From Escherichia coli (GTDB lineage Bacteria; Pseudomonadota; Gammaproteobacteria; Enterobacterales; Enterobacteriaceae): DNA of 64,000 nt. Below are positions 5,827 to 25,620 of the stretch, piece after piece. The translations under genes and the position numbers were made by a program. The notes beneath the pieces are model-generated. The model made no database searches, was not told the origin of the DNA, and was given only the letters and a program-made list of their open reading frames with translations. Every line of letters begins with the position of its first letter. Positions within the stretch are counted from its first letter, which is position 1. The DNA lies in the NCBI RefSeq assembly GCF_051903065.1, contig NZ_CP178438.1. One strand, 5' to 3'.

Positions 5827-6210
5827 TTATTCATAGCGTCTGCTACGTGCGGGACGAGGTCGGGTGTACCAGGCAATGCTGCCTAACAATGCCCCGACCA
5901 GAGCCATAAATAAAAATCCGACCAGTGCCCCTAACCACTTTCCCGCGGTAGAGCCTAAATCGCTTTCAAATCCCGACACGGGGGCATCGGGGATCCGGCT
6001 CATCACCCAGATGTAACGCGCCATTGCCCAGACGAAATAGCCACACCATGTATAGAAAGCCCACAAAGCCAGTTTGCCGCCAGGGCTGCGAGAGAGTCTC
6101 TCTTCCATCTTTGTCGAACCGTATTCCATTTTGAGATAACCCGGAAAATTCAGACTTAGTACTATTATGTGATAAAAGTCACATTTTTCCACATTGAATG
6201 AGCCAGTCAA
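5827..6210 (-). CDS. yedR: Small inner-membrane protein YedR
   Basis: 127-aa ORF with two hydrophobic helices; exact start uncertain. Confidence 0.6.
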   Translation of the reverse strand: MTGSFNVEKCDFYHIIVLSLNFPGYLKMEYGSTKMEERLSRSPGGKLALWAFYTWCGYFVWAMARYIWVMSRIPDAPVSGFESDLGSTAGKWLGALVGFLFMALVGALLGSIAWYTRPRPARSRRYE

Positions 6211-6355
6211 GACTCAATCATTTTTTGAACAAATAGATAAATTTTGCGCAACGGCAGTGAATACAGGAAAAATCGTTTTGAGCGATTTTATTTATCTTTG
6301 ATATCGGCTTTATTAATTCATTTAATCAATATATTAGCACTGAATACAATTATAC

Positions 6356-6446
6356 CTTTTTATTTTTCTGTGTCATGATGCCTCCGTTATTAGCCTTTTA
6401 TCGTCTTGTTTATATTTTTTGGGCCGGCATGATGCCGGCTTTTTTT
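6356..6446 (+). ncRNA. rseX: Putative RseX small RNA (yedR-yedS intergenic)
   Basis: Intrinsic terminator GCCGGCA-TGA-TGCCGGC plus T7 ending at 6446; RseX is known to lie between yedR and yedS. The 5' end is an estimate. Confidence 0.4.
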
Positions 6447-6757
6447 ATGCCTTCATTAATGTGCGCGTGATCACACCAGCCGTTTAGCGCAACAATCATT
6501 GATACCCCCTATCTTTCCGCTCAACTCATAACATATTGATATGCATTTATAATCTTCATGAATGCTTATATTTAGAATTCATAATTCTGAATTATATTAA
6601 ATAGATTGGAAACATTTTGAAATCTTTTAAATATATTTGTTACATGTAATCCTTAAAATAAAATGAACTTCATAGAATAGTATCCAAATGTGCTTTTTTT
6701 TGGATAACGGCACTTATTGATATATTCATGAAGATTATAATCACAAGGGAATACATA

Positions 6758-7945
6758 ATGAAAAGAAAAGTTCTGGCAATGCTGGTCCCGGCGTTATTAG
6801 TTGCTGGCGCAGCAAATGCGGCTGAAATTTATAATAAAGATGGCAATAAACTGGATTTGTACGGAAAAGTAGCGGGCCTGCACTACTTCTCTGATGATGC
6901 TGGCAGCGATGGCGACATGTCATATGCCCGTATCGGTTTCAAAGGTGAAACTCAGATCGCTGACCAATTCACTGGTTATGGTCAGTGGGAATTTAACATT
7001 GGCGCAAACGGTCCTGAAAGCGACAAGGGTAATACCGCAACGCGTCTGGCATTTGCAGGTTTCGGCTTTGGTCAGAATGGTACTTTCGACTATGGTCGTA
7101 ACTACGGTGTCGTATATGACGTAGAAGCATGGACCGATATGCTGCCAGAATTTGGTGGCGATACCTATGCTGGCGCTGACAACTTCATGAACGGTCGTGC
7201 TAATGGTGTTGCAACCTACCGTAACAATGGCTTCTTTGGTCAGGTCGATGGCCTGAACTTTGCTCTGCAATATCAGGGTAATAATGAAGATGATGGATTA
7301 TTCGGTCAGGAAGGTTCTGGTAACGGTAATGGCCGTAAGTTAGCTAAAGAGAACGGCGACGGCTTCGGTATGTCCACTTCCTATGACTTCGACTTCGGTT
7401 TAAGTCTGGGTGCTGCATATTCTAACTCTGACCGTACCGACAATCAGGTTCACAAAGGTACTCATAACACTCGTTATGGAGATCGCTTCGATGCAACTGC
7501 TGGCGGTGAAACAGCAGAAGCATGGACCGTTGGTGCTAAATACGACGCTAATAACGTTTACTTAGCAGCTATGTATGCTGAAACCCGTAACATGACTGGT
7601 TACGGTGATGCTGATGCCATCGCTAACAAAACCCAAAACTTTGAAGTTGTTGCTCAGTATCAGTTCGACTTTGGTCTGCGCCCGTCCATCGCTTACCTGC
7701 AATCTAAAGGTAAGGATTTAGGCGGTGTAAATAGTGATAACTTCGACAGCCAGGGTAATCATCACTACACCAACAAAGATCTGGTTAAATATGTTGATAT
7801 TGGTATGACCTACTACTTCAACAAAAACATGTCCACCTATGTTGATTACAAAATCAACCTGCTGGACAACGACGACGACTTCTACAAAGAAAACGGCATC
7901 GCTACCGATGATATCGTTGCTGTGGGCTTAGTCTACCAGTTCTAA
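6758..7945 (+). CDS. yedS: Outer-membrane general porin (OmpC/OmpF family), intact YedS-type
   Basis: Signal peptide [21 protein letters not shown], porin N-terminus [16 protein letters not shown] and C-terminal ...VGLVYQF; RBS AAGGGA 8 nt upstream of ATG 6758. The track's ORF starts at an upstream ATG (6728). Confidence 0.8.
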
Positions 7946-7987
7946 TCAGCCAACTCGCTGCGGCGTGTTACTGTAAAACTGAACACT

Positions 7988-8026
7988 AGCCTGAGTTCGT
8001 CCCTCATCGAACTCAGGCTTTTTTAT
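7988..8026 (+). terminator. Intrinsic terminator of yedS
   Basis: AGCCTGAGTTCG...CGAACTCAGGCT 12-bp stem followed by TTTTTTATT. Confidence 0.65.
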
Positions 8027-8537
8027 TGACATTTCATCTCCCTCTGCGGCACACGCAATTGCCAAAGCATATCGATACACCACCTTACCCTGCCCCTCCT
8101 GGCACAATATCTTCTACCAGCTACTCTTCCAGCCAACACCCCAAATACATTTCTTTATGAATTAATCCGCAACAAACACACTTCCCATATAGAAATATTT
8201 GCAAAAATAGTGCATGAAAAAAGCTTTTTCTCTGCCAATCCTGGATATAAATATTCATCAGCACCACAATATTCCACAGCACTAAATCTCTCCCCGCCAC
8301 CCCGTACCTCTGATAATGGTCTAAAATCATTGAGGCCACTTGCGACGACGTTGCTCAATAAGGAAAATTTGGCGTGAATAATATTCAACACCAGTGCAGC
8401 ATCATCATTACATACTTACACCCGCCGACTACCGCTTTCGATATATTGACTCAATTTTCCAGCCTGGTTAAAAATAGCGACCAGCTCAGTCGCAAATATA
8501 GTGACTACCCTAACTAAGCAACAATAAGGAATACACT

Positions 8538-9389
8538 ATGACTGTTCAAACAAGTAAAAATCCGCAGGTCGATATTGCTGAAGATAATGCATTCTTCCCT
8601 TCAGAATATTCGCTTAGCCAATATACCAGTCCTGTCTCTGATCTTGATGGCGTGGACTATCCAAAACCTTATCGCGGTAAACATAAAATTCTGGTGATCG
8701 CCGCGGACGAACGTTATTTGCCGACCGATAACGGAAAACTGTTCTCGACCGGTAACCATCCGATTGAAACGTTGCTGCCGTTGTATCATCTCCATGCTGC
8801 AGGTTTCGAATTCGAAGTGGCGACCATTTCCGGTCTGATGACCAAGTTTGAATACTGGGCTATGCCGCACAAAGATGAAAAAGTAATGCCATTCTTTGAG
8901 CAGCATAAATCGTTGTTCCGCAATCCGAAGAAACTCGCGGATGTTGTCGCCAGCCTCAACGCTGATAGCGAATATGCAGCAATCTTTGTTCCTGGTGGTC
9001 ATGGCGCACTTATTGGTTTACCTGAAAGCCAGGACGTAGCTGCCGCTTTACAGTGGGCAATCAAAAATGACCGTTTTGTTATCTCCCTTTGCCACGGCCC
9101 GGCGGCTTTTCTGGCGCTTCGCCACGGCGATAACCCACTGAATGGTTATTCCATTTGCGCATTCCCAGACGCCGCAGACAAACAAACGCCAGAGATTGGC
9201 TATATGCCGGGTCATCTCACCTGGTACTTCGGCGAAGAGCTGAAGAAAATGGGCATGAACATTATTAATGACGACATCACCGGGCGAGTACATAAGGACC
9301 GTAAAGTTCTCACCGGCGACAGTCCTTTCGCAGCGAATGCGTTGGGTAAACTGGCGGCGCAGGAAATGCTGGCAGCTTACGCGGGTTAA
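8538..9389 (+). CDS. hchA: Hsp31 glyoxalase / protein deglycase HchA (DJ-1/PfpI family)
   Basis: 283 aa; recognised sequence MTVQTSKNPQVDIAEDNAFFPSEYSLSQYTSP... Confidence 0.9.
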   Translation: MTVQTSKNPQVDIAEDNAFFPSEYSLSQYTSPVSDLDGVDYPKPYRGKHKILVIAADERYLPTDNGKLFSTGNHPIETLLPLYHLHAAGFEFEVATISGLMTKFEYWAMPHKDEKVMPFFEQHKSLFRNPKKLADVVASLNADSEYAAIFVPGGHGALIGLPESQDVAAALQWAIKNDRFVISLCHGPAAFLALRHGDNPLNGYSICAFPDAADKQTPEIGYMPGHLTWYFGEELKKMGMNIINDDITGRVHKDRKVLTGDSPFAANALGKLAAQEMLAAYAG

Positions 9390-9424
9390 TCCCTGTTACG
9401 TTTGAATGTAAGCGCATAATCAAT

Positions 9425-9465
9425 CGCAGCCGCGTTAGTATTCACGACGTGGCTGCGTTTTTTCA
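9425..9465 (+). terminator. Hairpin plus T-run between convergent hchA and hprS
   Basis: CGCAGCC...GGCTGCG stem followed by TTTTTT. Confidence 0.45.
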
Positions 9466-9496
9466 CGGTTAATTTATGGCGTACTGAAGCCCTATG

Positions 9497-10855
9497 TTAA
9501 TTTCTTTGCGGCAACGTAATCCGGAACACATTATGCTTATTGAGATAGTGATACGTAGCACTTCCCCCATGTAATTCGGCAATCGCTTTGACTAAAGAAA
9601 GGCCTAGTCCCTGACCTACGGAATGACGCGAATTATCTCCCCGCCAAAATCTACGGAAGAGTTTTTCAGGCTCATTAATTTTCGTTCCAGGGCTGGCGAT
9701 ATCAATATTAAGATAGCTGTTGGTATCAAGAAAACTGGTTATATGAATACGCGATTTTTCTGGCGAATATCGAATAGCGTTAACAATAAGATTCGATAAC
9801 ATTCGTTGCAGTAAAATTTTATCCGCAAAGATTTGCTGATTGCACTCGACCTTAAAGCAAATCTCTTTCTCGTCTGAAAGATATTCAAGATAGTCCAACA
9901 AATTTTCGACTTCCTTATTGAGAGAAAGCGAGTCCAGTTTCACCAAAACATTGTTTTTATCTGCCCTGGCAAGAAACAGTATGTTCTCTGTTAACCGCGA
10001 AATATTTTCCAGTTCTTCAATGTTACCGGCAATTGTTTTTTGATATTCAGCGATACTTCTGGTTTGACTGAGCGTAACCTGATTCTGACCCAGTAATGCA
10101 TTAATTGGCGTTCTAAGTTCATGAGCGAGATCGTCAGCAAACTGACTTAGACGCTCAAAATCTTTGACTAAAGCATGATGCATTTTATTCAACGCCTGCC
10201 CAAGAGGTTTTAGTTCTCTCGGTAATGCGCTAACCTCAACAGGCTCCCGGCTATCGTTATAATTCAGCGCTTCCGTTACACCACTCAACTTTTTGATCTC
10301 TCGTAACCCCGTTCGGATTAACAGCGGACTTAATACTGAGCACAGTATAATGGCGACAATGCAAATTATAATGCTATTGATTTTATACTGTTCAAGCATG
10401 TTATGTCTGGCTGAAGCCAATTTAGCCACAGTAACCGTTAATGATGGCGAAACTTCATCAATATTAATTCGTAAAGCATCTATCTCTGTATCATTAATAA
10501 TGCTTCTGTAAATGCCAGCTGCGCTGATTGTCTCACTAGCAGGTATGTTATTTAACATGCCATCACTGACATTTGTCCGGTTAACAATTTTATTGATGCT
10601 ATCACCATGAATGATCAAGATATCCTGACTAACATCCATCATCCGGTTAAAGTACACAGGTAACGTATCTGGATTTACCCCATCAATTAACAACTGCTTG
10701 ATCTGTGCTGTCCGGTTAATGAGTGTTGTATCATCGCGCCATTTCAACTCACTTGCCAGGCCATTATAGAGAGTCCAGACAATTCCGGCGCCAGCAACAG
10801 ACAGCAGCAATATAAAAAGCAAGGTTAAACGGACGGTTATAGATAATCTTTTCAT
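9497..10855 (-). CDS. hprS: Sensor histidine kinase HprS (YedV)
   Basis: 452 aa; two TM segments, HisKA motif AHELRTPINAL, C-terminal ATPase G-boxes; stop overlaps hprR. Confidence 0.85.
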   Translation of the reverse strand: MKRLSITVRLTLLFILLLSVAGAGIVWTLYNGLASELKWRDDTTLINRTAQIKQLLIDGVNPDTLPVYFNRMMDVSQDILIIHGDSINKIVNRTNVSDGMLNNIPASETISAAGIYRSIINDTEIDALRINIDEVSPSLTVTVAKLASARHNMLEQYKINSIIICIVAIILCSVLSPLLIRTGLREIKKLSGVTEALNYNDSREPVEVSALPRELKPLGQALNKMHHALVKDFERLSQFADDLAHELRTPINALLGQNQVTLSQTRSIAEYQKTIAGNIEELENISRLTENILFLARADKNNVLVKLDSLSLNKEVENLLDYLEYLSDEKEICFKVECNQQIFADKILLQRMLSNLIVNAIRYSPEKSRIHITSFLDTNSYLNIDIASPGTKINEPEKLFRRFWRGDNSRHSVGQGLGLSLVKAIAELHGGSATYHYLNKHNVFRITLPQRN

Positions 10856-11526
10856 TATTTTTTTACCGCTACGAATGAATAGCCCATCCCCCGGATTGTA
10901 GCGATTAGCTTCTCAGGAAAAGGATCATCAACTTTTGCGCGGAGCCTGCGAATGGCAACATCCACCGTATTGGTATCACTATCAAAGTTGATTCCCCAAA
11001 TTTCACTCGCAATAACCGTTCTGGGTATAATTTCGCCAGCTCTGGAGGCCAGTAGCCAAAGTAACTGAAACTCCTTGCGCGTCAGTGTAATACTGATATT
11101 GTCCCTGCTCACACTTTGACTAACAGAGTCCATTCTTAAGCCGCTGATTTCTAATGTTGAATTCAAAGCGTGATGTTGCCTTAATTGTGCCCGAACCCTT
11201 GCCAGCAACTCAGAAAATGAAAAAGGTTTTACCAGATAATCATTTGCTCCACTGTCCAGCCCTCTGACTCTGTCATCGACAGAATCCCTTGCAGTAAGGC
11301 AAATAACAGGGGTTTGCTTTGCCGTTCTTAACGTTTGTAAGATCTGCCAGCCATCCATACCCGGAAGCATAATATCCAGAATGATCAATGCATAATCATC
11401 CTTCAGCGCAAGATAAAGCCCATCTCTGCCATCAGAAACGGCATCAATGACATAACCCGCTTCGGAAAGCCCCTGCGTTACCCACTCCTGGGTCCTTTGA
11501 TTATCTTCAATAAGTAAAATCTTCAT
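10855..11526 (-). CDS. hprR: OmpR-family response regulator HprR (YedW)
   Basis: 223 aa from MKILLIEDNQRTQEW (ATG 11524-11526); receiver domain plus winged-helix. The track's ORF is extended upstream. Confidence 0.85.
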   Translation of the reverse strand: MKILLIEDNQRTQEWVTQGLSEAGYVIDAVSDGRDGLYLALKDDYALIILDIMLPGMDGWQILQTLRTAKQTPVICLTARDSVDDRVRGLDSGANDYLVKPFSFSELLARVRAQLRQHHALNSTLEISGLRMDSVSQSVSRDNISITLTRKEFQLLWLLASRAGEIIPRTVIASEIWGINFDSDTNTVDVAIRRLRAKVDDPFPEKLIATIRGMGYSFVAVKK

Positions 11527-11571
11527 GAAAATAATATGCCATAAATCATATGTTATAGAAACAGCCTGGTT

Positions 11572-11589
11572 CATTACAAAATTGTAATG
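11572..11589. promoter_or_regulatory. Perfect palindrome CATTACAAAATTGTAATG in the hprR / hiuH divergent promoter region; candidate HprR (CusR-like) box
   Basis: 18-bp inverted repeat read directly from the sequence, between the divergent hprR and hiuH starts. Confidence 0.5.
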
Positions 11590-11658
11590 CTGCTGTAAGG
11601 TTACCCTGGACGCTTTTTCGCTATCCTCAAAACTCATTCACATGACAAGGATATAAAC

Positions 11659-12072
11659 ATGTTAAAGCGTTATTTAGTACTCTCGGTAGCAACGGCAGCA
11701 TTTTTATTACCTTCTTTGGTTAATGCCGCACAACAAAACATTCTTAGCGTGCACATTTTGAACCAGCAAACAGGAAAACCCGCTGCTGACGTGACAGTCA
11801 CTCTTGAAAAGAAGGCGGATAACGGCTGGTTACAACTTAATACCGCCAAAACAGATAAGGATGGACGAATTAAGGCACTGTGGCCCGAGCAAACTGCAAC
11901 TACGGGCGATTACCGTGTCGTATTTAAAACCGGGGACTATTTCAAGAAACAAAATCTTGAAAGTTTCTTCCCTGAGATCCCCGTTGAATTTCATATTAAT
12001 AAAGTGAACGAGCATTATCATGTGCCTTTATTACTTAGCCAATATGGGTATTCAACCTATCGTGGCAGTTAA
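11659..12072 (+). CDS. hiuH: 5-hydroxyisourate hydrolase (transthyretin-like) HiuH (YedX)
   Basis: 137 aa with signal peptide; C-terminal YRGS tetrapeptide typical of HIU hydrolases. Confidence 0.85.
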
Positions 12073-12174
12073 TGCATAAATATGTAAAAGCAGATCTCTG
12101 CTACTGTTAGGGAGGACACTCCCTGACAGATTAACAGTAAACGGCTCTTGCTGGCTAACGACAAAAAAGTGTGA

Positions 12175-13185
<1,011 letters not shown>

Positions 13186-13821
13186 ATGCGTCTGACAGCA
13201 AAACAGGTGACATGGCTGAAAGTTTGCCTGCATCTTGCCGGATTGTTGCCGTTTCTCTGGCTGGTCTGGGCGATCAATCACGGTGGACTGGGTGCCGATC
13301 CGGTGAAAGATATTCAGCATTTTACCGGTCGCACTGCACTGAAATTTTTGCTGGCGACCTTGTTAATCACACCTCTGGCACGCTACGCAAAACAGCCGTT
13401 ATTGATACGCACACGCCGCCTGTTAGGCTTATGGTGCTTTGCCTGGGCGACACTGCATTTAACCAGTTACGCATTGCTGGAGCTGGGCGTGAATAATCTG
13501 GCGTTATTAGGCAAGGAGTTAATTACCCGGCCTTATTTAACGTTAGGAATTATCAGCTGGGTTATTTTGCTTGCTTTAGCGTTTACTTCAACCCAGGCGA
13601 TGCAGCGAAAACTCGGCAAGCACTGGCAACAGTTGCATAATTTCGTCTATCTTGTCGCGATCCTGACCCCAATACATTATCTGTGGTCAGTGAAGATTAT
13701 TTCACCGCAGCCGCTCATCTACGCTGGGCTGGCTGTACTGCTTTTAGCCTTACGGTATAAGAAGTTGCGTTCCCTTTTTAACCGGTTACGCAAGCAGGTT
13801 CACAACAAATTATCTGTATAA
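13186..13821 (+). CDS. msrQ: Heme-binding membrane partner MsrQ (YedZ)
   Basis: 211-aa polytopic membrane protein starting 1 nt after the msrP stop. Confidence 0.9.
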
Positions 13822-13854
13822 CTTCATATTGCCGACAAAGTACGCGTTATCCCT

Positions 13855-13888
13855 GCCGGATGTGGCGCGAGCGCCCTATCCGGCCTAC
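13855..13888. repeat. REP element
   Basis: GCCGGATGTGGCGCGAGCGCCCTATCCGGCCTAC matches the canonical REP palindrome. Confidence 0.65.
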
Positions 13889-14022
13889 GCAGATCACATC
13901 AGGTTATGTTTCGTTTGTCATCAACCTCAAATTATCAACATAATTCATTTTATTTCAATAAGATAGATAAGTACACCTGAGAAAACTATGCTCTCATCTC
14001 CTAAGAGTTGTTGCATTTTGTC

Positions 14023-14043
14023 ATATGTTACAATATAACATTA
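14023..14043. promoter_or_regulatory. Zur box upstream of zinT
   Basis: ATGTTACAATATAACAT palindrome (ATGTTA/TAACAT arms) about 35 bp upstream of the zinT start; matches the Zur consensus core TGTTATAnTATAACA. Confidence 0.6.
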
Positions 14044-14077
14044 CACATCATATACAATGACTCTGGAGGAAACTGTT

Positions 14078-14728
14078 TTGGCGATTCGTCTTCACAAACT
14101 GGCTGTTGCTTTAGGTGTCTTTATTGTTAGCGCTCCTGCCTTTTCGCATGGTCATCACTCACACGGCAAACCCTTAACAGAGGTCGAACAAAAAGCTGCT
14201 AATGGTGTTTTTGATGATGCCAATGTACAAAACCGAACGCTCAGTGACTGGGATGGAGTCTGGCAATCCGTTTATCCTTTACTGCAAAGTGGCAAACTTG
14301 ACCCCGTCTTTCAGAAGAAAGCGGATGCAGATAAAACTAAAACATTTGCTGAAATTAAAGATTATTATCACAAAGGTTATGCAACAGATATCGAGATGAT
14401 TGGCATTGAGGACGGCATTGTTGAATTCCATAGAAATAATGAAACAACATCCTGTAAATATGATTACGATGGATACAAAATACTCACCTATAAATCAGGC
14501 AAGAAAGGCGTTCGTTACTTATTCGAATGTAAAGATCCTGAAAGCAAAGCCCCTAAATATATACAATTTAGCGATCATATAATTGCACCACGAAAATCAT
14601 CTCATTTTCACATTTTTATGGGTAATGATTCACAGCAATCTTTATTAAATGAAATGGAAAACTGGCCAACGTATTATCCATATCAGTTGAGTAGCGAAGA
14701 AGTGGTCGAGGAAATGATGTCTCATTGA
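14078..14728 (+). CDS. zinT: Periplasmic zinc/metal-binding protein ZinT (YodA)
   Basis: His-rich HGHHSHG after the signal peptide. Start called at TTG 14078 ([13 protein letters not shown]) with GGAGGA 8 nt upstream; an in-frame ATG at 14057 is the alternative. Confidence 0.8.
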
Positions 14729-15070
14729 GTATTCTCATGATAACGCCTCGATGCCGCTTTAGTAAGTCATCATAACTGCCACTGGTCCATCCACAAACGC
14801 CACTGAACGCAAGCTAGCTACAGACACGCTCATCACTATGACGTGTCTGTATATTAATAAGCTAACCCGCATTGAGTTAACCAATAACGGATTCCATACA
14901 CAATACGGCCAACAGAGAAAGATACCTGTGCTCACGCCATTGCTTATATTGGCTGGTTACAATGTGCACTATCAATTTTTTAAATAACAAATTCTTAAAA
15001 CCACATCTGTATAAGGAATTTTTAAGGTTCGTGGGATAGCTTGACTGTGAAAATCACAGGAGCTACAAAA

Positions 15071-15601
15071 ATGAACCGATTCTCAAAAACTCAAATTTAT
15101 TTACATTGGATAACGCTGCTTTTCGTTGCAATAACCTATGCCGCGATGGAACTCCGTGGCTGGTTTCCTAAAGGTAGTAGTACTTATCTGCTAATGCGAG
15201 AAACACATTACAATGCGGGTATATTCGTTTGGGTGTTAATGTTTTCACGCCTGATTATAAAACACCGTTATAGTGATCCTTCTATTGTGCCACCGCCACC
15301 TGCCTGGCAAATGAAAGCGGCTTCGCTAATGCACATCATGCTTTATATAACCTTCCTTGCACTTCCTCTGCTGGGGATTGCTTTGATGGCTTACAGTGGA
15401 AAATCGTGGAGTTTCCTTGGTTTCAATGTGTCTCCCTTTGTTACCCCAAACAGCGAAATTAAAGCACTGATAAAAAATATTCACGAAACCTGGGCAAATA
15501 TAGGCTACTTTTTAATCGCAGCTCACGCTGGCGCAGCACTCTTTCATCACTACATTCAGAAAGATAATACTCTGTTACGAATGATGCCTCGCCGCAAATA
15601 A
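15071..15601 (+). CDS. yodB: Cytochrome b561 family protein YodB
   Basis: 176 aa from MNRFSKTQIYLHW; four TM helices with conserved His; AGGAGC RBS upstream. Confidence 0.8.
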   Translation: MNRFSKTQIYLHWITLLFVAITYAAMELRGWFPKGSSTYLLMRETHYNAGIFVWVLMFSRLIIKHRYSDPSIVPPPPAWQMKAASLMHIMLYITFLALPLLGIALMAYSGKSWSFLGFNVSPFVTPNSEIKALIKNIHETWANIGYFLIAAHAGAALFHHYIQKDNTLLRMMPRRK

Positions 15602-16170
15602 GTCGATCCCCTGACAAGGAAATGTGAACCATGGACATCAACGCGTCATAAATGTTTACGCAAGTGCACAATGCACCCTTTCCACTATCAACAAGGAGGA
15701 GCAGAAACTGTGTAAATCGTACAATGGTAAGACTTATCAAAAATACAGGTTAATTTTGGTATTTAAACCTTTTTTACTTGTTAGTATGATACAAAGGCTT
15801 TCAAAAAAGCTGGGAAATTCAACAACTCTTGGAAATTATGGACTTTGTCCCGCGGCTTTAATCTGACGGCCGCGTTCCTTTTTTGACTCAATTATTGACC
15901 CCTTCTCTACGCAACTTCAGTTCCCACCACCAACTTTGCGGCAGTTTCATAGGATGAATGTCTAAAAGAATAATGGTGAGCGATAAGAAAACGACTGAAT
16001 AACTGCACATTTTCGCTCGAAAGCTTCCTGTCAGATCCATAGCGAATCAAGTGCTGAATGTCACAGTATCGAATAGAAAACAGTGACGATCTAACCCTTC
16101 AAGAATATTCTACGATTGTTCTGTTTAGGAAAAGCAAGGCGGGAAGTCGGGAGATAAGTCATTGATAAAG

Positions 16171-16260
16171 TGGCGGAGAGAGGGGGATTTGAACCCCCGG
16201 TAGAGTTGCCCCTACTCCGGTTTTCGAGACCGGTCCGTTCAGCCGCTCCGGCATCTCTCC
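16171..16260 (-). tRNA. serU: tRNA-Ser (serU)
   Basis: Reverse complement reads GGAGAGATGCCGGAGCGGCTGAACGGACCGGTCTCGAAAACCGGAGTAGGGGCAACTCTACCGGGGGTTCAAATCCCCCTCTCTCCGCCA; long variable arm; CCA encoded. Confidence 0.9.
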
Positions 16261-16353
16261 GTTCAGATGGTTGCCATGATGCCAGGAAATTTGGCATTTT
16301 AACAGTCCCTGTCCGTGCAATTTTGTTCAAGTGACGAGTTTGCGAGCAAAACG

Positions 16354-17151
16354 ATGATTAAGTGGCCCTGGAAAGTACAAGAATCAGCACATCAAACTGC
16401 CCTTCCCTGGCAGGAAGCACTATCGATCCCCCTTTTAACATGTCTGACGGAACAGGAACAAAGCAAATTAGTCACTCTTGCCGAACGTTTTTTACAGCAA
16501 AAGCGGCTTGTTCCTTTACAGGGCTTTGAACTGGATTCATTAAGAAGCTGCCGGATAGCACTTCTATTTTGCCTACCCGTTTTGGAGTTAGGACTGGAAT
16601 GGCTGGATGGTTTTCATGAAGTCTTAATTTATCCTGCGCCATTTGTGGTCGATGATGAATGGGAAGACGATATCGGTCTGGTGCATAACCAACGTATTGT
16701 TCAGTCAGGTCAGAGCTGGCAGCAAGGGCCTATCGTTTTGAACTGGTTGGATATACAAGATTCTTTTGATGCTTCTGGTTTTAACCTGATTATTCATGAA
16801 GTCGCTCATAAGCTGGACACCCGTAACGGCGATCGCGCCAGCGGAGTTCCCTTTATTCCGTTGCGTGAGGTTGCTGGCTGGGAACACGATCTTCATGCTG
16901 CAATGAACAACATTCAGGAAGAAATCGAATTGGTTGGCGAGAATGCGGCGAGCATTGATGCTTATGCTGCCAGTGATCCTGCTGAATGTTTTGCCGTACT
17001 TTCTGAATATTTCTTTAGCGCCCCAGAACTTTTTGCTCCTCGTTTCCCTTCATTGTGGCAACGTTTCTGCCAATTTTATCAACAAGATCCTTTGCTGAGA
17101 CTGCATCACGCTAATGATACAGACTCGTTTTCGGCGACGAATGTTCATTAA
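16354..17151 (+). CDS. mtfA: Mlc-titration factor / zinc aminopeptidase MtfA (YeeI)
   Basis: 265 aa from MIKWPWKVQ; HEVAHKLD zinc-binding HExxH motif. Confidence 0.85.
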
Positions 17152-17204
17152 TTAACAACTTTGCAGATTAATTAACCAATTGAAATGACTTATGAAATTT
17201 AGTG

Positions 17205-17233
17205 TTGACAGACAAGGTACCGCTAAGTAATAT
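17205..17233 (+). promoter_or_regulatory. sigma70 promoter of asnT (TTGACA-17bp-TAATAT, GC-rich discriminator)
   Basis: -35 TTGACA 17205-17210, -10 TAATAT 17228-17233, then GCGCCCC; the same architecture precedes asnW, asnU and asnV. Confidence 0.65.
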
Positions 17234-17251
17234 GCGCCCCGTTCACACGAT

Positions 17252-17327
17252 TCCTCTGTAGTTCAGTCGGTAGAACGGCGGACTGTTAATCCGTATGTCA
17301 CTGGTTCGAGTCCAGTCAGAGGAGCCA
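17252..17327 (+). tRNA. asnT: tRNA-Asn (GUU)
   Basis: TCCTCTGTAGTTCAGTCGGTAGAACGGCGGACTGTTAATCCGTATGTCACTGGTTCGAGTCCAGTCAGAGGAGCCA. Confidence 0.95.
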
Positions 17328-17413
17328 AATTCTAAAAATTCGCTTCTTAGCGCAATGTCACTGACCTTAATTGAGCATTGTTTTTCAACGGATAGCGGGT
17401 TTTGACATCTTAA

Positions 17414-17446
17414 GCGCCCTCGACCTTTATGGTTGAGGGCGTTTTG
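17414..17446 (+). terminator. Intrinsic terminator after asnT
   Basis: CGCCCTCGACC...GGTTGAGGGCG stem plus TTTTG. Confidence 0.6.
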
Positions 17447-17637
17447 CTATGGCGCCATCACCATTTTCCCCTCGATTATAAAACTTGAGTAATTCAGTAG
17501 TCTCCCCTCTTGCAACTCACACCCAAAACTGCCTAACGAAAAGTTATTAATTTTCAATCATATTGCTATCAGGATTTACATTTTTTCGCTGTGCTAGAAA
17601 GGGCGCATTTATGTTAGCTCGTTCAGGGAAGGTAAGC

Positions 17638-25620
<7,983 letters not shown>

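Follow-up and report, generated by a model that had tools for sequence, protein, structure and literature searches.

The closest described relative of the locus examined here is the HprSR two-component system (YedVW/HypVW) of E. coli K-12, together with its target operon hiuH-msrPQ. In this system, HOCl and related oxidants are sensed by HprS through the periplasmic residues Met72 and Met153, which leads to the phosphorylation of HprR, as described for HOCl/H2O2 in PMC9302797, PMC13064566 and bioRxiv 2021.09.09.459708. Phosphorylated HprR, or its paralogue CusR when phosphorylated after copper, then binds CATTACAA-AA-TTGTAATG in a 132-bp spacer, so that hiuH-msrPQ is activated and hprRS autoregulated. 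hiuH-msrPQ is reported as tricistronic by RT-PCR (bioRxiv 2021.09.09.459708). The binding of HprR to the hiuH promoter was seen in ChIP and EMSA (PMC13064566), gSELEX peaks were found at cusR/cusC and hprR/hiuH with one recognition sequence for HprR and CusR (PMC8249747), and a YedW/CusR heterodimer was seen by FRET (PMC2586830).

The paralogous CusRS/cusCFBA system, with its "copper box" (AAAATGACAAnnTTGTCATTTT), and the plasmid sil/pco boxes likewise have a divergent regulator and target and an inverted repeat with a 2-nt centre. HprR and CusR are 51.6% identical, and their cross-binding is documented (PMC8249747). The cusR/cusC box reads AATGACAA-TT-TTGTCATT, in the same architecture as the hprR/hiuH box, and it lies 89 to 72 bp before the cusC ATG, compared with 87 to 70 bp before hiuH for the HprR box. 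The half-site core AT[G/T]ACAA is common to the HprR box and the Cus/sil/pco boxes, whereas two symmetric positions differ between the hpr and cus half-sites (TTACA versus TGACA, plus the outer base). The two systems also differ in that cusR has a strong Shine-Dalgarno sequence (GGAGG) while hprR has none, and in that the GC3 of cusRS is ordinary (0.60-0.65) while that of hprRS is 0.39-0.42. Finally, their sensor domains are unrelated in signal (Cu/Ag for CusS, HOCl for HprS), the 33% identity between HprS and CusS being restricted to the cytoplasmic part.

Outside Escherichia, the same three-gene unit, with hiuH divergent from the response regulator and histidine kinase genes (RR-HK), is found as CopRS-hiuH at the edge of SPI-5 in Salmonella and as the Citrobacter, Pseudescherichia and Intestinirhabdus modules at the galP/sprT site. 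The Salmonella box lies 69-86 bp before hiuH, in the same place as in E. coli, and the Salmonella HK, RR and HiuH are respectively 54%, 76% and 69% identical to those of E. coli. These modules differ from the E. coli one in their chromosomal sites, in having no msrPQ downstream, in a GC3 near the host level, and in a hybrid box (ATGACA...TGTAAT) where that of E. coli is symmetric (ATTACA...TGTAAT). A more remote parallel is the Pseudomonas CopR/CusR/CzcR palindrome (ATTCATnnATGTAAT), which likewise offers one site in a divergent spacer to several paralogous regulators with regulator-specific outputs (PMC11195947); it differs in organisms, signals and half-site details, and has no hiuH or msrPQ target.

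The window, meaning the whole stretch of 64,000 nucleotides that was analysed, is part of an E. coli chromosome and differs from E. coli NZ_AP045789.1 at 3 of its 64000 positions. The features on which the following relies are these:

9425-9463, plus strand: intrinsic terminator of hchA, a hairpin (9425-9457) followed by a U-run, at the left edge of the low-GC block
9497-10855, minus strand: hprS (yedV), annotated as a sensor histidine kinase of 452 aa
10855-11526, minus strand: hprR (yedW), annotated as an OmpR-family response regulator of 223 aa
11527-11658, no strand: divergent hprR/hiuH control region, 132 bp, GC 0.35
11533-11541, minus strand: predicted extended -10 of hprR (TGGCATATT on that strand), whose TG.CA.A.T positions do not vary across 7 genera and keep a constant distance to the start codon
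11572-11589, no strand: HprR/CusR box, with arms H1 (11572-11579) and H2 (11582-11589), centred at 11580.5
11594-11601, plus strand: H3, TGTAAGGT, a conserved half-site-like element 5 nt past the box, of putative function
11622-11627, plus strand: predicted hiuH -10 hexamer TATCCT, a TAnnnT-type hexamer at the same position across genera
11659-12072, plus strand: hiuH (yedX), annotated as a periplasmic transthyretin-like hydrolase
12104-12129, plus strand: hairpin in the hiuH-msrP spacer, a conserved 11-bp stem with no U-tract
12181-13821, plus strand: msrP-msrQ, by annotation

We give a probability of roughly 0.85 to the reading of this locus as HprSR (YedVW) of E. coli with the divergent operon hiuH-msrPQ as its target, taken as a whole with the account of the box, promoters and cassette given below. 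In a profile search, the hprS product matches the heavy-metal sensor kinase family TIGR01386 (317.7 bits, cut-off 292.55); its residues M72, M73, M100, M153, C165 and H245 are all present, M72 and M153 being invariant across 10 orthologues. HprR matches the NCBIfam equivalog NF008567 over its entire length (span 1-223 of 223, 483.3 bits, cut-off 353) and retains D51, while HiuH matches NF011610 (290.9 bits, cut-off 217). The hprR stop and the hprS start overlap (TAATG; junction sequence AAATAATGAAA). The longest open reading frame at hprR, which reaches 11637 and would encode 260 aa, was rejected as the gene, the true start being at 11526. The divergent layout of hprRS and hiuH-msrPQ is found alike in E. 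albertii, and the likeness to the K-12 system extends to genes, order, functional residues, spacer and box position, with no substantive difference. Indeed, the 132-bp spacer is 100% identical to that of K-12 MG1655, box included, and 3971 of 5416 E. coli records have it with an identity of 99% or more; in the coding regions, the identity with most E. coli genomes is 95-99%, which is ordinary allelic variation. The HprSR pair and its operator are well studied and already published, and their re-identification adds nothing new. An Rfam search over 6000-18000 returned only RseX and two tRNAs, none of them inside the hprS-hiuH feature.

The first-pass annotation had described a perfect 18-bp palindrome between the divergent starts, seen as an operator common to HprR and CusR. 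The position is confirmed: CATTACAAAATTGTAATG lies at 11572-11589, that is, 87 to 70 bp ahead of the hiuH ATG (11659), in the divergent spacer. Its role as a common operator holds as well, since PMC9302797 labels this exact string in the hiuH-hprR spacer "CusR and HprR boxes"; the agreement with the published HprR/CusR (YedW) box is letter for letter, and the distance to the hiuH ATG is equal, both in that source and in bioRxiv 2021.09.09.459708. The term palindrome has to be amended to an 8-2-8 inverted repeat: the inverted-repeat search returned two 8-nt arms, 100% complementary and 2 nt (AA) apart, and the reverse complement of the box is CATTACAATTTTGTAATG, the central A9-A10 being non-complementary and unable to self-pair.

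A repeat of this kind might also have arisen by chance or be bound by some unrelated factor, with HprR then acting elsewhere in the spacer. Indeed, about one bare 8+2+8 inverted repeat is expected every 64 kb, and the window contains 2 for ~1.2 expected, which is no rarer than chance and led us to drop the idea that the palindrome is significant per se. The significance of the box comes instead from its identity to the published one (16 specified bases, one match) and from its conservation in 25 orthologous spacers. Across these spacers, from ~15 genera, the core AT[G/T]ACA-N4-[T/G]GT[A/C]AT is kept, with 1.79 bits per position in H1 and 1.68 in H2, while the flanks have decayed to 0.3-0.5. 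The AT[G/T]ACA half-sites inverted about a 4-nt centre are also an architecture common to the hprR/hiuH, cusC, sil and pco promoters. Together with the exact published box at its published distance from hiuH, and with the published SELEX, EMSA and ChIP results, which effectively refute it already, this makes the chance explanation extremely improbable, and we take the inverted repeat as the HprR/CusR operator.

The promoters served by this operator were predicted solely from phylogenetic footprints. On the hprR side, TGnCAWAnT is found in most of the 25 aligned spacers. Because the last T of this -10 precedes the A of the start codon by 7 nt and a Shine-Dalgarno sequence is lacking, the hprR mRNA, probably transcribed from this extended -10 promoter, is predicted to be leaderless. 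On the hiuH side, the counterparts of the -10 hexamer in other genera are TATCTT, TATATT, TACATT and TATAAC. The hiuH transcription start (TSS) would lie near 11634, with the centre of the box at about -53.5 and that of H2-H3 at about -43.5; the box would then precede each of the two divergent start points by ~54 bp. Between 11400 and 11800, a sigma-70 promoter scan gave no consensus match, as would be expected of an activator-dependent promoter. A literature search for a leaderless hprR or a mapped hiuH TSS gave nothing relevant.

Past the box, H3 repeats H2 (TGTAAT) in direct orientation at a spacing of 11 bp, and its consensus, TG[T/A][A/C]AGG, carries 1.61 bits per position over the 25 spacers. 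The cus promoter has an H3-like repeat at +11 as at hiuH (TTGTCATtttcCTGTCAC at cusC), and this layout is also found in the promoters of silC and pcoE and, more weakly, of pcoA; in the Salmonella and galP/sprT-sited modules, conservation includes H3, the -10 and the extended -10 of the RR. Located one helical turn downstream of the box, H3 would prolong the operator in the direction of hiuH, forming a tandem like that of a Pho box and abutting the -35 position. It could instead be a promoter or RNAP-contact element and no regulator half-site at all; as a -35 hexamer, it is ruled out by the 22-23 bp that separate it from the conserved -10.

Direct repeats are the usual sites of OmpR/PhoB-family regulators, and in the Pho box such repeats, of 11 bp and in tandem, overlap the -35 region. 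The H2-H3 tandem of 11 bp (TGTAAT/TGTAAG; TTGTCAT/CTGTCAC at cusC), beside a promoter without a -35 consensus, may be likened to it, with the differences that H1 adds an inverted half-site and that the distance to the -10 is ~12 bp longer than at pstS. In the strongest form of this parallel, hiuH (and cusC) would be activated through H2 and H3, a direct repeat in tandem (TGTAAT-N5-TGTAAG) to which the regulator would bind head-to-tail, like PhoB at Pho boxes, and H1 would serve mainly the leftward hprR promoter or cooperative binding. We consider this rather unlikely. H3 is admittedly conserved like the two arms of the box, the +11 repeats of cusC, silC, pcoE and, more weakly, pcoA each fit their own half-site variant, and a centre at about -43.5 would be class II-like. 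However, the TSS positions from which this centre is counted are themselves predictions, H3 in the Pantoea-type clade (TGACAG) is no direct repeat of its H2 (GGTCAT), and the distant CusR-like loci of Oxalobacteraceae show no consistent or fixed +11 element. Moreover, the literature takes the palindrome as the site, and 4-bp changes inside the palindrome abolish activation at both divergent promoters in Pseudomonas (PMC11195947). We keep the H1-H2 inverted repeat as the regulator site, with H3 as a putative third element.

The base composition of the locus had also been singled out: hprS and hprR were said to be AT-rich relative to the neighbouring hiuH-msrPQ genes. This stands with respect to msrP and msrQ (GC3 0.537 and 0.552), and hchA (0.493), but not with respect to hiuH, which is as low as the two regulatory genes. 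Indeed, GC and GC3 are 0.400 and 0.389 in hprS, 0.445 and 0.424 in hprR, and 0.415 and 0.391 in hiuH, which differs neither from hprS (p = 0.95) nor from hprR (p = 0.54), whereas it does differ from msrP in GC3 (p = 0.004). The pooled GC3 of hprS-hprR-hiuH is 0.399 against 0.526 in the immediate flanks (p = 2e-7), with sharp steps at the gene boundaries of the module (p = 0.004-0.005). On the left, GC falls from ~0.50 to 0.42 at the hchA terminator, whose RNA fold has -21.7 kcal/mol (z = -4.7); terminator scans at both module borders made no call, the loop of the hchA terminator exceeding the limit of the scan and being seen by folding. The low-GC unit is thus hprS, hprR, the spacer and hiuH (about 9400-12250), not hprRS alone. 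This corrected unit comprises the regulator and its first target.

The extent of the anomaly is to be read against its surroundings. When 144 ORFs from another 200 kb of this genome serve as the background (mean GC3 0.562, sd 0.067), the z scores are -2.6 for hprS, -2.1 for hprR and -2.55 for hiuH, at the 3rd-4th percentile, so that hprRS is low in GC3 but within the low tail of the genome and not outside it; some core genes elsewhere in the genome are equally low. The window itself has a GC of 0.48 and a mean GC3 of 0.50 (0.56 elsewhere), and a regional AT bias contributes to the low GC3, since 7 of the 54 window genes lie below hprS and the window mean is 0.50. Among the low-GC3 neighbours are zinT (0.31), yodB (0.40) and mtfA (0.39). 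The paralogous cusRS stands at 0.60-0.65. We rejected the idea that the module is AT-rich in every host, as the signature of a single low-GC donor: the mean module-minus-flank GC3 is -0.006, and it is negative in 13 of 28 hosts.

The first-pass annotation drew from the composition an old horizontal acquisition. This gains independent support from the non-syntenic sites, the clades that cross families, the plasmid copies and the normal GC of cusRS, but it is unproven. We find it probable that hprS-hprR-hiuH is a portable three-gene cassette that entered, or was relocated in, the Escherichia ancestor next to msrPQ, which would have brought msrPQ under HprR control by read-through. The hiuH/RR-HK module occupies at least 4 distinct chromosomal sites (Escherichia, Salmonella, Citrobacter and others), and hiuH always travels with RR-HK in the other genera examined. 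In particular, Escherichia, Salmonella and Citrobacter are closely related and otherwise conserved in synteny, and have the module at three different sites. The protein clades extend across families: in Kosakonia and Raoultella, the alleles group with those of Erwiniaceae, with 82-85% identity to Pantoea/Erwinia and just 52-55% to Salmonella/Citrobacter. The identity of HprS is 88% with E. albertii and at most 55% with the next one. Finally, the five-gene block hprS-msrQ is found on conjugative IncF plasmids (11 records; hprS-hiuH is ~93% identical, and a stretch of 4313 bp 89.2%), where the homology has one end exactly at the stop codon of hprS and the other close to that of msrQ. The comparative evidence thus depicts a unit that is mobile in Enterobacterales, and an Escherichia-specific linkage to msrPQ that is derived.

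The same low GC might have come about by vertical descent, in a part of the chromosome on the terminus side that is AT-rich and where codon selection is weak, the different positions then arising by intragenomic rearrangement and the low identity by fast evolution of the sensor. The whole window is indeed AT-rich, zinT, yodB and mtfA being as low as the module or lower. Within Escherichia, the module is core and syntenic: 5420 of 5426 complete E. coli genomes have the hprSR region, and E. albertii has it at the same site, so that the variable presence among strains that marks an acquired islet was not found. Nor are there mobility scars: the search for flanking direct repeats and mobility genes around 9350-12220 gave only short, chance-like matches, the neighbours of the module being hchA and msrP and the nearest tRNAs lying 4 kb or more from it. 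A donor lineage was not found either, and a literature search for an earlier claim of horizontal transfer of yedVW gave nothing relevant. The Escherichia proteins are somewhat nearer to those of Salmonella/Citrobacter than to the Pantoea type, which agrees with vertical descent combined with fast divergence and translocation, and the distances among the three genera are compatible with the species tree. However, the GC3 steps coincide with the gene boundaries of the module while the adjoining msrPQ and hchA are compositionally ordinary, three close genera have three module sites, transfer within the family is evident in the Erwiniaceae-type alleles of Kosakonia/Raoultella, and the block is carried by IncF plasmids. 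Core orthologues of E. coli and Salmonella are about 90% identical, and the RR (76%) and the HK (54%) fall far under this level. We thus regard purely vertical inheritance as doubtful and retain the portable cassette. The genome scan used two peptide patterns and left E. coli itself, E. fergusonii and E. marmotae unlisted, for which reason we make no claim of absence of the module in any species.

How msrPQ came under this control can be pictured tentatively. A self-contained "sense-and-detoxify" cassette, hprS-hprR-hiuH, with a three-element operator (the H1-H2 palindrome and H3) and a leaderless regulator mRNA, might have landed upstream of resident msrPQ in an Escherichia ancestor; the hiuH terminator would have lost its U-tract and kept its hairpin, read-through would have placed msrPQ under HprR control, and the five-gene block would now be disseminating on IncF plasmids. 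The msrPQ genes are co-transcribed with hiuH yet compositionally ordinary, and they do not adjoin the module in Salmonella, Citrobacter and others. In Salmonella, msrP is not under CopRS-hiuH control (PMC10083560), and CpxR would be used for the same problem. A derived msrPQ linkage fits the rewiring known from experiments, with HprSR in E. coli and CpxRA in Salmonella.

The control-region predictions (third operator element, leaderless hprR mRNA and conserved hiuH-msrP hairpin) could explain both the weaker binding of HprR at its own promoter than at the cus promoter, and the much stronger induction of hiuH than of msrP. The hairpin at 12104-12129 is a candidate for a decayed terminator or an attenuator at the junction between the module and msrPQ. 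A terminator scan of the hiuH-msrP spacer called none, while its fold reaches -36.5 kcal/mol (z = -5.1). E. albertii and the IncF allele preserve the stem, with two pairs changed on both sides from G-C to A-T, and three-gene modules elsewhere end in strong hairpins, which in C. amalonaticus have a U-tract.

The low-GC unit of this locus comprises hprS, hprR and hiuH (yedV, yedW and yedX), which we will call the module. The window differs from the E. coli 23CRST027 chromosome at 3 of 64,000 positions. Of 5426 complete E. coli genomes, 5420 contain the region. The 223-aa product scores 483 bits against the NCBIfam HprR equivalog (cut-off 353) over its full length, HiuH matches its own equivalog, and the HprS kinase matches the heavy-metal-sensor subfamily. 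Asp51 is present in HprR, as are Met72, Met73, Met100, Met153, Cys165 and His245 in HprS. The hprR stop and hprS start overlap in TAATG; a 260-aa ORF reaching 11637 was rejected as the hprR gene. The features are listed below, with genes as annotated and third-codon-position GC (GC3) beside overall GC.

8538-9389, + strand: hchA, GC 0.488, GC3 0.493
9497-10855, - strand: hprS, GC 0.400, GC3 0.389
10855-11526, - strand: hprR, GC 0.445, GC3 0.424
11533-11541, - strand: invariant TGnCAWAnT, here TGGCATATT, final base 7 nt upstream of the A of the hprR ATG
11572-11589: HprR/CusR box, CATTACAAAATTGTAATG
11594-11601: third element (H3), TG[T/A][A/C]AGG, here TGTAAGGT, starting 5 nt past the box
11622-11627: predicted hiuH -10, TATCCT, conserved
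11659-12072, + strand: hiuH, GC 0.415, GC3 0.391
12104-12129: hairpin, 11-bp stem without U-tract
12181-13185, + strand: msrP, GC 0.524, GC3 0.537
13186-13821, + strand: msrQ, GC 0.481, GC3 0.552
downstream of msrQ: zinT and yodB

The first-pass annotation had described hprRS as AT-rich relative to hiuH-msrPQ. The observation is real and holds against msrPQ, but not against hiuH, which is AT-rich too. With 144 long ORFs as background, drawn from a further 200 kb of this genome (mean GC3 0.562, sd 0.067), hprS, hprR and hiuH have z scores of -2.6, -2.1 and -2.55, i.e., the 3rd to 4th percentile, and msrP and msrQ are ordinary. Since hiuH does not differ significantly from either hprS (p = 0.95) or hprR (p = 0.54) and the step between hiuH and msrP is significant (p = 0.004), as is that between hprS and hchA (p = 0.005), the low-GC unit is hprS-hprR-hiuH. 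Its pooled GC3 is 0.399 versus 0.526 for the immediate flanks (p = 2e-7), and in a fine-scale profile the low-GC block extends from about 9400 to 12250. The paralogous cusRS genes have a GC3 of 0.60-0.65. Within the genome, hprRS belong to the low tail without falling outside the range. The window is itself AT-rich, with a GC of 0.48 and a mean GC3 of 0.50; 7 of the 54 genes in it, zinT included, have a GC3 below that of hprS. At 14078-17151, zinT (0.31), yodB (0.40) and mtfA (0.39) match or exceed the module in AT-richness, so that the neighbourhood is a mosaic of low- and normal-GC genes, in which composition is weaker evidence for any single gene.

As to the old horizontal acquisition that had been proposed from this composition, comparative data constitute stronger evidence. 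The divergent arrangement of hiuH and the regulator-kinase pair is conserved as three genes, and its chromosomal sites vary. The unit lies between hchA and msrPQ-zinT in Escherichia, between hpaC and pipD-sopB at the edge of SPI-5 in Salmonella, and between galP and sprT-endA in Citrobacter amalonaticus, C. sedlakii, Pseudescherichia and Intestinirhabdus, with further contexts in Phytobacter, Kosakonia, Raoultella terrigena, Shimwellia, Pantoea, Erwinia and others. HprS homologues are 97-99% identical within E. coli, 94% in E. marmotae and 88% in E. albertii, and identity then falls directly to 55% or less. Protein identity matrices resolve three clades. The HprS of Kosakonia and Raoultella, which are Enterobacteriaceae, is 82-85% identical to that of Pantoea and Erwinia (Erwiniaceae) and 52-55% to that of Salmonella and Citrobacter (Erwiniaceae-type alleles in K. 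cowanii, L032, and R. terrigena, L044, compared with L049 and L051 from Pantoea and Erwinia). These identities indicate transfer within the family, and a Pantoea agglomerans copy (L040) is carried by a 548-kb megaplasmid; both point to horizontal transfer of the module.

In E. coli and E. marmotae, conjugative IncF plasmids carry a five-gene block, hprS-hprR-hiuH-msrP-msrQ (L015 9001-13290, NZ_CP148367.1; L016, CP099183.1), adjoined by a site-specific integrase and ccdAB. It is 89.2% identical to window 9497-13809 over 4313 bp, starting exactly at the hprS stop (9497) and ending about 12 nt short of the msrQ stop; 11 plasmid records show about 93% identity over hprS-hiuH. No earlier statement on these copies or on the GC anomaly was found in the literature.

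Several points speak against an acquisition by Escherichia. Throughout the genus the module belongs to the core and keeps its synteny, a search of its borders turned up neither repeats nor mobility genes, and its proteins are slightly nearer to the Salmonella and Citrobacter versions than to those of Pantoea type, in agreement with the species tree. Its low GC3 (0.32-0.42) is specific to the Escherichia alleles, the mean difference between module and flanks being -0.006 in other hosts. We consider horizontal acquisition reasonable and better supported than before, short of proof, and we give a probability of about 60% to an ancient acquisition or relocation predating the radiation of Escherichia.

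In Providencia rettgeri and P. alcalifaciens (L045-L047), msrP-msrQ directly follow an HprR/HprS-like pair (62% and 36% identity) in the same orientation, without hiuH, and no recognisable box precedes the regulator gene. Here the HprS-type sensor family seems to have become linked to msrPQ independently. In Salmonella, CopRS-hiuH does not control msrP, which is under CpxR (PMC10083560).

The module is controlled from the 132-bp spacer between hprR and hiuH (11527-11658). Its box had been called a perfect 18-bp palindrome, which it is not; a repeat search finds fully complementary 8-nt arms with 2 nt between them, and the reverse complement, CATTACAATTTTGTAATG, differs from the box. Bare 8+2+8 inverted repeats are near expectation in the window (2 observed, about 1.2 expected), so symmetry alone is no evidence. 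The box is real because its string is published verbatim as the "CusR and HprR boxes" of this spacer (PMC9302797), the published YedW box position, counted from the hiuH ATG (11659), falls exactly on 11572-11589, the spacer is 100% identical to that of K-12 MG1655 over its whole length, and both gSELEX (PMC8249747) and, in O157:H7, ChIP and EMSA (PMC13064566) support HprR binding at the hiuH promoter. Among 5416 records, 3971 keep the spacer at 99% identity or more. The earlier reading as an operator common to HprR and its paralogue CusR is thus correct, and not new: both recognise one sequence with unequal affinities (PMC9302797, PMC8249747), and heterodimers are possible (PMC2586830). HprR-P, or CusR-P after copper, binds the box, activating hiuH-msrPQ, described as a single transcript, and autoregulating hprRS (PMC9302797, PMC8249747, PMC13064566, bioRxiv 2021.09.09.459708).

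HprR and CusR are 51.6% identical, and HprS and CusS 33%, in the cytoplasmic part only. The cusR-cusC spacer of the same genome carries AAAATGACAATTTTGTCATTTT (L014 14073-14094), which shares with the HprR box the half-site core AT[G/T]ACAA, the 2-nt centre and the divergent arrangement; it lies 89 to 72 bp upstream of cusC, versus 87 to 70 bp upstream of hiuH for the HprR box. Across 25 orthologous spacers, the core AT[G/T]ACA-N4-[T/G]GT[A/C]AT reaches 1.79 and 1.68 bits per position versus 0.3-0.5 in the flanks. The hprR-proximal arm reads ATTACA only in Escherichia and ATGACA, the CusR-type half, in every other genus compared (window 11575 against L004, L005, L007-L009 and L021-L050); the perfect symmetry of the arms is hence a derived state, owed to a G-to-T change peculiar to Escherichia. 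The IncF box reads CATTACAAAATTGTAATT. In gSELEX, HprR binding is weaker at its own spacer than at that of cus (PMC8249747), a difference that the derived arm may explain.

H3 is conserved on par with the half-sites (1.61 bits per position, 25 spacers). In E. coli, Salmonella and Citrobacter it is a direct repeat of the proximal half-site at 11-bp spacing; a simple direct repeat does not describe the Pantoea-type H3 (TGACAG) or distant CusR-like loci. The cusC promoter (TTGTCATtttcCTGTCAC, L014 14096-14102) has this layout too, as do those of silC and pcoE (L017 408-413 and 18119-18124) and, more weakly, that of pcoA. At 22-23 bp from the conserved -10, H3 is too far to be a -35 hexamer and was rejected as such. 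Tentatively, H3 could be a third regulator contact, forming with the proximal half-site a tandem centred near -43.5 that resembles a Pho box. On the hprR side, TGnCAWAnT keeps its 7-nt distance to the ATG in all genera examined, and no Shine-Dalgarno sequence was found at 11526-11541 (- strand), unlike cusR, which carries GGAGG; hprR is therefore predicted to have an extended -10 promoter and a leaderless mRNA. Given the predicted start points, the box centre would be equidistant from both, at about -53.5 (hiuH) and -54.5 (hprR). Our literature search found neither start-site data for these genes nor a mention of H3.

Where the low-GC module meets msrPQ, a terminator scan of the 108-nt hiuH-msrP spacer called none, and this spacer is strongly structured (-36.5 kcal/mol, z = -5.1). 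E. albertii and the IncF allele keep the stem at 12104-12129, with A-T replacing G-C in two compensatory changes. In other genera, three-gene modules have strong hairpins 3' of hiuH, with a clear U-tract in C. amalonaticus. The hairpin is a candidate decayed terminator or attenuator; a decayed terminator would allow partial read-through into msrP, fitting the copper induction of hiuH (~190-fold) relative to msrP (~13-fold) (PMC9302797).

Two further database matches, L020 (MAG "Collinsella sp.", 1.6-kb contig) and L058 ("Alkalicoccobacillus porphyridii", 265-bp contig), are hprS fragments 97-99% identical to E. coli in assemblies of unrelated genomes, and almost certainly contamination. Elsewhere in the window, the RseX sRNA (Rfam, 96.7 bits; 6357-6446) precedes an intact porin gene of the OmpC family, annotated "ompC" (6758-7945), at the position of the K-12 yedS porin pseudogene.
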